Shown: one piece after another, positions 45,261 to 48,875 of the stretch
How positions within the stretch are numbered: position 1 is the stretch's first letter
Layout: each line of letters begins with the position of its first letter
Assembly (NCBI RefSeq): GCF_003334315.1
Contig: NZ_QOWR01000015.1
Direction: 5' to 3' (one strand)
Length of the DNA stretch: 64,000 nt
Source of the DNA: Escherichia coli
GTDB taxonomy: Bacteria; Pseudomonadota; Gammaproteobacteria; Enterobacterales; Enterobacteriaceae
The notes under the pieces: model-generated
What the model was told of the DNA's origin: nothing
What the model saw: the letters and a program-made list of their open reading frames with translations, nothing else
Database searches by the model: none
Position numbers and translations under genes: made by a program

Positions 45261-45491
45261 TCAGACCCCGTTGGCAAGCCGCGTGGTTAACTCATCCATA
45301 AAATATCGCGCAATGGCAGGCATCCCCTTTCGCCCCGCAAATAAGGCATGCAACAATCTGGGTATGCCGCTCCACGGAGCAAACAGGCGCACCAGTTCAC
45401 CGTTCACAAGCCCCTGTTTACAGGCAAATTGAGGCAATAACGCCACGCCATTCAACACAACCAGGGCGCGAACTCGCTGAGCGAAATGCAT
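45261..45491 (-). pseudogene. yqfE: Remnant (C-terminal effector-domain fragment) of a LysR-family regulator, yqfE-like
   Basis: 76-aa ORF resembling only the C-terminal part of a LysR-type regulator; no DNA-binding N-terminus present; divergent from argP. Confidence 0.55.
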
Positions 45492-45574
45492 TAGCGCAAA
45501 TCCCTGATCTTTTAAGCTGCGCGTTTAACCACGAATACAAATGTTACCCGCCGACGGCTTCGGTATATGCAACC

Positions 45575-45592
45575 TGACACAAAATTGTGTCA
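45575..45592. promoter_or_regulatory. Perfect 7-bp inverted repeat (TGACACA-aaat-TGTGTCA), candidate operator upstream of argP
   Basis: Palindrome about 40 bp upstream of the argP start; such dyads are typical of autoregulatory LysR-family sites. Confidence 0.3.
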
Positions 45593-45632
45593 TAGTGCAG
45601 GAAAAAGCATTTACCAGGAGCAGACAACAGCA

Positions 45633-46526
45633 ATGAAACGCCCGGACTACAGAACATTACAGGCACTGGATGCGGTGATACGTGAACGAGGATTTGAGCG
45701 CGCGGCACAAAAGCTGTGCATTACACAATCAGCCGTCTCACAGCGCATTAAGCAACTGGAAAATATGTTCGGGCAGCCGCTGTTGGTGCGTACCGTACCG
45801 CCGCGCCCGACGGAACAAGGGCAAAAACTGCTGGCACTGCTGCGCCAGGTGGAGTTGCTGGAAGAAGAGTGGCTGGGCGATGAACAAACCGGTTCGACTC
45901 CGCTGCTGCTTTCACTGGCGGTCAACGCCGACAGTCTGGCGACGTGGTTGCTTCCTGCACTGGCTCCTGTGTTGGCTGATTCGCCTATCCGCCTCAACTT
46001 GCAGGTAGAAGATGAAACCCGCACTCAGGAACGTCTGCGCCGCGGCGAAGTGGTCGGCGCGGTGAGTATTCAACATCAGGCGCTGCCGAGTTGTCTTGTC
46101 GATAAACTTGGTGCGCTCGACTATCTGTTCGTCAGCTCAAAACCCTTTGCCGAAAAATATTTCCCTAACGGCGTAACGCGTTCGGCATTACTGAAAGCGC
46201 CAGTGGTCGCGTTTGACCATCTTGACGATATGCACCAGGCCTTTTTGCAGCAAAACTTCGATCTGCCTCCAGGCAGCGTGCCCTGCCATATCGTTAATTC
46301 TTCAGAAGCGTTCGTACAACTTGCTCGCCAGGGCACCACCTGCTGTATGATCCCGCACCTGCAAATCGAGAAAGAGCTGGCCAGCGGTGAACTGATTGAC
46401 TTAACGCCTGGGCTATTTCAACGACGGATGCTCTACTGGCACCGCTTTGCTCCTGAAAGCCGCATGATGCGTAAAGTCACTGATGCGTTACTCGATTATG
46501 GTCACAAAGTCCTTCGTCAGGATTAA
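45633..46526 (+). CDS. argP: LysR-family transcriptional regulator ArgP (IciA)
   Basis: ORF 45567-46526 trimmed to ATG at 45633 ([15 protein letters not shown]); N-terminal helix-turn-helix. Confidence 0.9.
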
Positions 46527-46730
46527 TCCATCAAATAATGCCTGATAGCACATATCAGGCGTTGTCCTCACTTCTTTTTGTATTCCTTGAATCACATCAC
46601 AAAATAGACAAATCTCAGGCGGCAAAAAACGACGTCTGAATGCATTTTTTTTTGCTGGCGACAAACCCACGTAAAAAGCTCACCGTAGGCGCAAATACCC
46701 TCATTTTGATTGCGTTTTACGGAGCAAATA

Positions 46731-48875
46731 ATGTCTAACGTGCAGGAGTGGCAACAGCTTGCCAACAAGGAATTGAGCCGTCGGGAGAAAACTGTCGACT
46801 CGCTGGTTCATCAAACCGCGGAAGGGATCGCCATCAAGCCGCTGTATACCGAAGCCGATCTCGATAATCTGGAGGTGACAGGTACCCTTCCTGGTTTGCC
46901 GCCCTACGTTCGTGGCCCGCGTGCCACTATGTATACCGCCCAACCGTGGACCATCCGTCAGTATGCTGGTTTTTCAACAGCAAAAGAGTCCAACGCTTTT
47001 TATCGCCGTAACCTGGCCGCCGGGCAAAAAGGTCTTTCCGTTGCGTTTGACCTTGCCACCCACCGAGGCTACGACTCCGATAACCCGCGCGTGGCGGGCG
47101 ACGTCGGCAAAGCGGGCGTCGCTATCGACACCGTGGAAGATATGAAAGTGCTGTTCGATCAAATCCCGCTGGATAAAATGTCGGTTTCGATGACCATGAA
47201 TGGTGCGGTGTTGCCGGTACTGGCGTTTTATATCGTCGCCGCAGAAGAGCAAGGTGTTACACCTGATAAACTGACCGGCACCATTCAAAACGATATCCTC
47301 AAAGAGTACCTCTGCCGCAACACCTATATTTACCCACCAAAACCGTCAATGCGCATTATCGCCGACATCATCGCCTGGTGTTCCGGCAACATGCCGCGAT
47401 TTAATACCATCAGTATCAGCGGTTACCACATGGGGGAAGCGGGTGCCAACTGCGTGCAGCAGGTAGCATTTACGCTCGCCGATGGGATTGAGTACATCAA
47501 AGCAGCAATCTCTGCCGGACTGAAAATTGATGACTTCGCTCCTCGCCTGTCGTTCTTCTTCGGTATCGGCATGGATCTGTTTATGAACGTCGCCATGTTG
47601 CGTGCGGCACGTTATTTATGGAGCGAAGCGGTCAGTGGATTTGGCGCACAGGATCCGAAATCACTGGCGCTGCGTACCCACTGCCAGACCTCAGGCTGGA
47701 GCCTGACTGAACAGGATCCGTATAACAACGTTATCCGCACCACCATTGAAGCACTGGCTGCGACGCTAGGCGGTACTCAGTCACTGCATACCAACGCCTT
47801 TGACGAAGCGCTTGGTTTGCCTACCGATTTCTCAGCACGCATTGCCCGCAACACCCAGATCATCATTCAGGAAGAATCAGAACTCTGCCGCACCGTCGAT
47901 CCGCTGGCCGGATCCTATTACGTTGAGTCGCTGACCGATCAAATCGTCAAACAAGCCAGAGCTATTATCCAACAGATCGACGAAGCCGGTGGCATGGCGA
48001 AAGCGATCGAAGCAGGTCTGCCAAAACGAATGATCGAAGAGGCCTCAGCGCGCGAACAGTCGCTGATCGACCAGGGCAAGCGTGTCATCGTTGGTGTCAA
48101 CAAGTACAAACTGGATCACGAAGACGAAACCGATGTACTTGAGATCGACAACGTGATGGTGCGTAACGAGCAAATTGCTTCGCTGGAACGCATTCGCGCC
48201 ACCCGTGATGATGCCGCTGTAACCGCCGCGTTGAACGCCCTGACTCACGCCGCACAGCATAACGAAAACCTGCTGGCTGCCGCTGTTAATGCCGCTCGCG
48301 TTCGCGCCACCCTGGGTGAAATTTCCGATGCGCTGGAAGCCGCTTTCGACCGTTATCTGGTGCCAAGCCAGTGTGTTACCGGCGTGATTGCGCAAAGCTA
48401 TCATCAATCTGAGAAATCGGCCTCCGAGTTCGATGCCATTGTTGCGCAAACGGAGCAGTTCCTTGCCGACAATGGTCGTCGCCCGCGCATTCTGATCGCC
48501 AAAATGGGCCAGGATGGGCACGATCGCGGCGCGAAAGTGATCGCCAGCGCCTATTCCGATCTCGGTTTCGACGTAGATTTAAGCCCGATGTTCTCTACAC
48601 CTGAAGAGATCGCCCGCCTGGCAGTAGAAAATGACGTTCACGTAGTGGGCGCATCCTCACTGGCTGCCGGTCATAAAACGCTGATCCCGGAACTGGTCGA
48701 AGCGCTGAAAAAATGGGGACGCGAAGATATCTGCGTAGTCGCCGGTGGCGTCATTCCACCGCAGGATTACGCCTTCCTGCAAGAGCGCGGCGTGGCGGCG
48801 ATTTATGGTCCAGGTACACCTATGCTCGACAGTGTGCGCGACGTACTGAATCTGATAAGCCAGCATCATGATTAA
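46731..48875 (+). CDS. scpA: Methylmalonyl-CoA mutase (cobalamin-dependent)
   Basis: ORF 46710-48875 trimmed to ATG at 46731 ([15 protein letters not shown]); C-terminal B12-binding DxHxxG motif (GQDGHDRG). Confidence 0.9.

Follow-up and report, generated by a model that had tools for sequence, protein, structure and literature searches.

Between rpiA and argP on the Escherichia coli chromosome lies an ORF of 76 codons whose product resembles the end of a LysR-type regulator, and the question that it raises is whether this is a protein, the wreck of one, or a piece of DNA that has come to serve its neighbors. We approached it in a stretch of 64,000 nucleotides (hereafter, the window). The window is E. 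coli chromosome; a 501-bp query spanning the ORF found matches in 5,426 of the 5,426 complete E. coli genomes in RefSeq, at up to 100% identity. The genes of this neighborhood are as follows.

43058-44290, minus strand: serA (gene order of the window)
44546-45205, minus strand: rpiA, intact, co-directional with and downstream of the ancestral LysR gene (RefSeq annotation of identical or near-identical loci)
45261-45491, minus strand: yqfE (b2915), the 76-aa chimeric pseudogene ORF (ORF list, flag in NC_000913.3, UniProt name, and partial Pfam match)
45633-46526, plus strand: argP (iciA), intact (418 bits against a cut-off of 197 with the NCBIfam ArgP/LysG model; RefSeq annotation)
46710-48875, plus strand: scpA (gene order of the window)

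The ORF list bears out an ORF of 76 codons that starts with ATG, as the earlier note on this DNA had it. It is divergent from argP, the two ATGs being separated by 141 bp, and the adjacent rpiA is 100% identical across 219 aa (tblastn against the window). The earlier note had seen in the ORF nothing but the C-terminal, effector-binding end of a LysR protein, without an N-terminal DNA-binding region, and had pointed to a full-length intact homologue at this locus in this DNA as the observation that would overturn its reading. The profile searches agree with that description: the match to Pfam LysR_substrate (PF03466) covers model positions 151 to 208 of 209 only (E = 1.2e-4), and with the NCBIfam LysR models it is confined to the last ca. 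60 positions (profile positions ca. 230 to 297). LysR_substrate was the only Pfam domain returned, and when the intact orthologue described below was used as a tblastn query, only its residues 236 to 298 were recovered; the LysR helix-turn-helix region is absent from the whole 64-kb window, and no full-length homologue was found there. Of the two things expected of a functional LysR protein, a DNA-binding domain and a complete effector-binding domain (type 2 periplasmic-binding fold), the ORF thus has neither.

The feature is real, but it is ordinary and already known. The curated K-12 MG1655 record (NC_000913.3) flags the same 231-bp ORF as pseudogene yqfE, b2915, and UniProt calls the K-12/CFT073 allele "Uncharacterized protein YqfE," while PGAP labels the ORF variously as "LysR substrate-binding domain-containing protein," "type 2 periplasmic-binding domain-containing protein," or "hypothetical protein." The allele in the window is WP_001322018.1. 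K-12 yqfE shares with it the locus, the 231-bp ORF, and the junction described below, and differs at 6 nucleotides (3 amino acids) in the LysR-derived part. A literature search for "yqfE" returned only the gene list of one genome-reduced strain and an unrelated Bacillus paper, and "b2915" yielded nothing useful. The yqfE database entries that we examined mention neither an intact parental module nor breakpoints nor a chimeric start, and it is these that explain the ORF.

In strain EC19 the rpiA-argP interval measures 3,416 bp, against 427 bp in the window, and its gene table shows four genes there (coordinates prefixed L001 refer to the EC19 locus):

LysR-type regulator, 298 aa, minus strand, 55 bp upstream of rpiA
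L001 5009-5108: divergent spacer of 100 bp between the LysR and azoreductase genes
FMN-dependent NADH-azoreductase, 209 aa, divergent from the LysR gene
DUF1471 (YdgH/BhsA/McbA family) protein, 86 aa, after the azoreductase gene
Ferric-reductase-like membrane flavoprotein, 441 aa, last gene of the module, before argP

NCBIfam matches were consistent with the assignments of all four module genes, and gene tables give the same layout (rpiA, 298-aa LysR gene, azoreductase, DUF1471, ferric reductase, argP) for EC19, PCP06238, KN12-1, and ECA64. At least 80% of the 3.1-kb module segment is held by 233 of the 5,426 complete E. coli genomes (4.3%). The intact regulator (WP_022646093.1 or WP_000568123.1) is orthologous to the ORF and occupies the same position, its residues 236 to 298 being 95% identical to ORF codons 14 to 76; unlike the ORF, it has its full length of 298 aa, aligns end to end with LysR family models, and is paired with an azoreductase operon, whereas the window keeps 21% of it. 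Beyond E. coli, a contig scan of one genome per species, run with patterns from the E. coli LysR protein and with more distant orthologues (Salmonella, Citrobacter, Escherichia albertii, and Escherichia fergusonii) outside its scope, found a regulator between rpiA and argP, with synteny as in EC19, in Escherichia whittamii, Escherichia sp. E1V33, and Escherichia sp. MOD1-EC7003. A Pseudocitrobacter genome also has the regulator at the rpiA-argP position, with 72% identity. A full-length homologue at the orthologous position, which one expects of a pseudogene, is therefore present in E. coli itself, in other Escherichia species, and in Pseudocitrobacter.

Given this gene order and the divergent arrangement usual for LysR-type genes, the lost protein probably regulated the neighboring azoreductase operon, and this operon, now also lost, rather than argP would have been its natural partner. 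The earlier note had called the fragment a truncated paralogue, which, as regards argP, is not supported. The ArgP/LysG subfamily and the parent of yqfE share a superfamily and a divergent orientation, but they are not close paralogues: between the intact parent and ArgP, BLASTP gave E = 0.004 across 36 aa, and on the ArgP/LysG models the parent reached 55.9 bits where NF002964 requires 197 and 53.3 where TIGR03298 requires 273.55, a general LysR-family likeness only. Its best NCBIfam models were PRK14997, YafC, and AaeR, each below cut-off.

The module is not everywhere whole. In Pseudocitrobacter (L011 4553-6894) the LysR, DUF1471, and ferric-reductase-like genes are syntenic and an azoreductase gene was not detected; either the module may have gained the azoreductase late or Pseudocitrobacter may have lost it separately. 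The ferric-reductase-like gene is split by IS1 in KN12-1 and Ecol_881 (module region; L024 6521-8448); in E. whittamii and Escherichia sp. E1V33 it is disrupted by frameshifts or by deletions within the gene, and MOD1-EC7003 has a deletion running from the DUF1471 gene into the ferric-reductase gene together with a frameshift in the LysR gene. Even the "intact" module is eroding, independently across strains and species.

Alignment of the window with full-length homologues, the check proposed in the earlier note, resolved the short form into the following pieces.

45206-45260, minus strand: 55-bp spacer from the LysR stop codon to the rpiA start, 55 of 55 positions identical to the intact-module strain EC19 and untouched by deletion
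45261-45453, minus strand: LysR-derived remnant, comprising the stop codon and the last 63 codons (residues 236 to 298 of 298)
45453/45454 (L001 4304/5651): junction of deletion 1 (base-level junction alignment)
45454-45534, plus strand: azoreductase 3' remnant, residues ca. 182 to 207 of 209, whose antisense strand gives the yqfE ATG and the first 12 codons
45535-45576: 42-bp segment at the site of deletion 2, possibly a diverged ferric-reductase-like remnant (last ca. 10 codons)
45577-45632, plus strand: 56 bp of native argP upstream sequence, colinear with L001 7417-7472 and identical at 55 of 56 positions
45588-45596: TGTCATAGT motif, which resembles an extended -10 element, in the native argP upstream region

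From the rpiA side, window 44500-45453 is colinear with L001 3351-4304 at 98.5% identity, and within this the LysR remnant corresponds to L001 4112-4304 (95.9% nucleotide identity; 95% by tblastn for residues 236 to 298). Colinearity then stops at an unambiguous junction, with no microhomology in the sampled alleles, so that the truncation has a defined breakpoint relative to the intact gene. Compared with EC19, 1,346 bp (L001 4305-5650) are gone: LysR codons 1 to 235, the spacer with the divergent promoters, and all of the azoreductase gene but its 3' end. What follows the junction is the other end of that gene: blastn matched 45454-45511 to L001 5651-5708 at 91%, tblastn matched azoreductase with E = 2e-9, and a 26-residue translation of the plus strand from 45455 aligns in frame with TQPGRELAEQNALAQIPDLITQVFNH of EC19, so the remnant reaches ca. 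45534, near the azoreductase stop codon. From 45577 onward the window again matches EC19, from L001 7417 onward, which is the native upstream region of argP. Between the two, deletion 2 has taken about 1.7 kb with the DUF1471 and ferric-reductase-like genes, and a segment of 42 bp stands at its site. No significant match to this segment was found within the 1.7 kb that E. coli intact alleles have and the window lacks. In 5,000 shuffles, a colinear similarity as high as that to the E1V33 allele arose 8 times, as high as that to E. whittamii 156 times, and as high as that to EC19 about 1,300 times. Tentatively, this weak resemblance would make the segment a strongly diverged remnant of the last ca. 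10 codons of the ferric-reductase-like gene.

The junction also accounts for the start of the ORF. Codons 14 to 76 correspond to LysR residues 236 to 298, and codon 13 spans the junction. Codons 1 to 12 (MHFAQRVRALVV), the ATG included, are antisense azoreductase sequence, and the yqfE ORF is thus a chimera made by deletion. The description of it as a decayed, truncated LysR fragment is therefore right for codons 14 to 76, but it does not extend to the start codon and the first 12 codons, whose origin had gone unseen, as had the loss of three further genes beside the LysR gene.

We consider it very probable, from these comparisons of sequence, that the ORF is a nonfunctional deletion scar, the known pseudogene yqfE. 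In an ancestral Escherichia, the four-gene LysR/azoreductase/DUF1471/ferric-reductase-like module would have stood between rpiA and argP, and about 3.0 kb of it would have disappeared through two adjacent deletions in the ancestry of most E. coli. What is left is the last 63 LysR codons fused to the last ca. 27 azoreductase codons in opposite orientation, then the 42 bp, then the native argP upstream region. Read backwards over the junction, the LysR frame meets an ATG 12 codons into antisense azoreductase sequence, yielding the 76-codon ORF that gene callers report. The product would be dead on several counts: the DNA-binding domain is missing, about a quarter is all that is left of the effector-binding domain, the original promoter is lost, and the sequence is drifting and eroding further, lineage by lineage.

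This erosion was followed in 60 genomes evenly spaced along the match ranking. The full 231-bp ORF is present in 39 of them (ca. 65%) and the intact module in 2, with 1 more genome showing another form; the remaining 18 (ca. 30%) carry a further 45-bp deletion inside the LysR-derived part, and in 8 of these 18 no ORF is annotated. The 45-bp deletion (at the position of window ca. 45373-45418) is in frame, and the 4-bp repeat AGGC on either side of it suggests that it arose through microhomology. In the alleles of O157, CX21, CE10, and 2012C-4221 (about 13% of genomes), the ATG has become TTG and Gln5 a stop codon, beside the 45-bp deletion, and strain E09 has extra deletions of 24 bp and 89 bp, the latter of which shifts the frame and takes out the junction. 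A functional small protein would be expected to keep its ORF and start codon throughout the species; here, about one sampled genome in three has a shortened ORF or none. The genome-reduced strain DGF-298, in which yqfE through mscS is missing, is viable.

Two strains have gained DNA at the locus. Insertions of ca. 271 bp in E2348/69 (L004 1057-1383) and ca. 80 bp in E09 (L007 1057-ca. 1200) lie between the rpiA start and the stop codon of the remnant, and a TATAAT-like hexamer just upstream of rpiA is retained despite them. Presumably, both insertions are of the ERIC/IRU type of intergenic repeat, which they resemble.

The earlier note had further proposed that the promoter region of the fragment now serves argP. 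This proposal is not supported, because the spacer that held the LysR promoter (L001 5009-5108), in which a functional LysR gene would have its own promoter, lies wholly inside deletion 1, and because the 56 bp at 45577-45632 are native to argP. From the ORF's ATG to argP there is the azoreductase 3' remnant, then the 42-bp segment at 45535-45576, and then these 56 bp, which are invariant in the E. coli alleles compared and adjoin argP in intact-module strains too; they are thus argP's own. They contain the Shine-Dalgarno sequence AGGAG as well as TGTCATAGT, which is kept in other Escherichia species and in Pseudocitrobacter and is likely the extended -10 element of argP. A consensus promoter and terminator scan of 45150-45700 called neither, and an Rfam scan of 42000-47000 (E ≤ 1) found nothing in the rpiA-argP interval, its only hit being a SIB RNA near serA. 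We found no accessible paper that maps the argP promoter. An older claim, that PhoB controls iciA/argP, is contradicted by ChIP-seq data showing no PhoB binding or regulation (PMC10294691).

The alternative that survives best is that the scar DNA, rather than the ORF, has a function, the 3' end of the LysR gene harboring upstream promoter elements of rpiA or the junction DNA supplying the -35 element or another upstream part of the argP promoter. The stop codon of the remnant is indeed followed by the rpiA start after 55 bp, and ca. 40 bp of the LysR 3' end together with the spacer are kept in all sampled variants, even in E09. On the argP side, if TGTCATAGT is the -10 element, then the -35 element would fall at about 45568-45573, in junction DNA, and 45561-45574 are invariant in 16 alleles. 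Taken as a whole, however, 45454-45576 varies at 0.12 to 0.14 events per site, like neutral DNA, and conservation begins only at 45577. Moreover, intact-module strains have wholly unrelated sequence upstream of the 45577 block and yet encode an identical ArgP protein (WP_000828351.1); E2348/69 and E09 tolerate their ERIC-like insertions on the rpiA side of the remnant; the LysR promoter spacer is gone; and no promoter-like site passed the consensus scan. The junction DNA may make a minor contribution to the -35 element of argP, but a functional role for the scar as such seems improbable to us beside that of a scar without function.

Whether the encoded protein is under constraint was judged from a site-by-site comparison of 16 scar and 7 intact alleles, to which 13 extra loci (11 scar and 2 intact-module) had been added. 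In the 16 scar alleles, variable-site events per site at codon positions 1, 2, and 3 were 0.079, 0.063, and 0.222 in the LysR remnant, against 0, 0, and 0.082 in rpiA and 0.017, 0, and 0.178 in argP; the corresponding values were 0.12 to 0.14 for the noncoding scar (45454-45576) and 0 for the native argP upstream region (45577-45632; 16 E. coli alleles). Little constraint on the encoded protein is left. Relaxed constraint and further independent lesions, the hallmarks of a pseudogene, are thus both in evidence, with the caveat that the ratio of nonsynonymous to synonymous change is not fully neutral. K-12 and E2348/69 differ in the remnant by 8 synonymous changes and 1 nonsynonymous change. 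Scar-only changes in the 63 LysR-derived codons number about 9 nonsynonymous to 9 synonymous, where the neutral expectation is about 70 to 75% nonsynonymous (binomial P of about 0.005 to 0.06), and intact-only changes number 4 to 13 (with the frameshifted MOD1-EC7003 gene left out).

Five of the synonymous polymorphisms, at coding positions 18, 24, 54, 72, and 117, are common to scar and intact or outgroup alleles (window 45261-45453 compared with L001, L008, L009, L010, and L012). This pattern points to recombination with intact alleles, or with unsampled intact donors, rather than to selection. A single deletion event is insufficient to explain the shared variants unless scar and intact alleles have recombined or mutations have recurred. 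The third-position excess is best read as inherited from a time when the gene was still intact, or from intact alleles. Pairwise dN/dS might suggest that the ORF is under purifying selection, but the shared synonymous polymorphisms, the variable first and second positions, and the destruction of the ORF in a large clade make this unlikely. Weak residual purifying selection is likewise unlikely, in this sample of 16 scar and 7 intact alleles, for lineages in which the ORF survives.

The same data bear on a second alternative, that YqfE is a translated, functional mini-protein, for example, a LysR C-terminal fragment that modulates another LysR-type regulator, selected in ca. two thirds of E. 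coli. The ORF begins with an ATG and is whole in ca. 65% of the genomes sampled, synonymous change is in excess relative to strict neutrality, and the common 45-bp deletion preserves the frame. Nevertheless, a large clade has lost the start to TTG and a stop at codon 5, frameshifting deletions occur elsewhere, and codon positions 1 and 2 exceed those of the flanking genes in variability by a factor of roughly 5 or more; the window allele alone has three amino acid changes relative to the intact protein. Expression and folding present further difficulties, since the original promoter is deleted, the consensus scan saw no promoter-like site in the interval, and 63 residues of a two-lobed domain of ca. 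200 would be unlikely to fold alone. The curated K-12 annotation, too, is that of a pseudogene. We therefore hold a functional mini-protein to be very unlikely, and it is just as doubtful that the chimeric ORF is translated and weakly selected in the lineages that retain it, as a small protein born from the deletion junction.

The converse history, with an ancestral short form into which the four-gene module was later inserted in a few strains, would sit well with a module confined to 4.3% of complete E. coli genomes, but we give it almost no credence, as it is refuted by the partial-gene remnants: the short form holds the 3' ends of both the LysR and azoreductase genes in correct order and orientation, pieces that an insertion cannot create, and other Escherichia species and Pseudocitrobacter carry the module in synteny. 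From these partial pieces of two module genes, and from the same position of the regulator in those other taxa, we infer that the module is ancestral at the rpiA-argP locus and that the short form arose from it by deletion.

That yqfE is most probably a nonfunctional deletion scar matters mainly for annotation, as PGAP gives the pseudogene ORF protein labels in thousands of genomes. What is added here to the existing pseudogene entry is the origin of the ORF, with the parental four-gene module, the two deletions, the chimeric start, and the frequencies of further decay. The locus also offers a small, clean case of ongoing gene loss at a fixed position, in which a regulator-plus-redox operon is under independent loss in several Escherichia lineages.

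One neighboring feature deserves mention. The SIB RNA near serA (Rfam RF00113) is full length at 42695-42845 on the plus strand of the window and scores 133.8 bits against a gathering score of 56. It corresponds to the sibC/ibsC type I toxin-antitoxin locus beside serA, and related genomes have ibsC annotated at the equivalent position.
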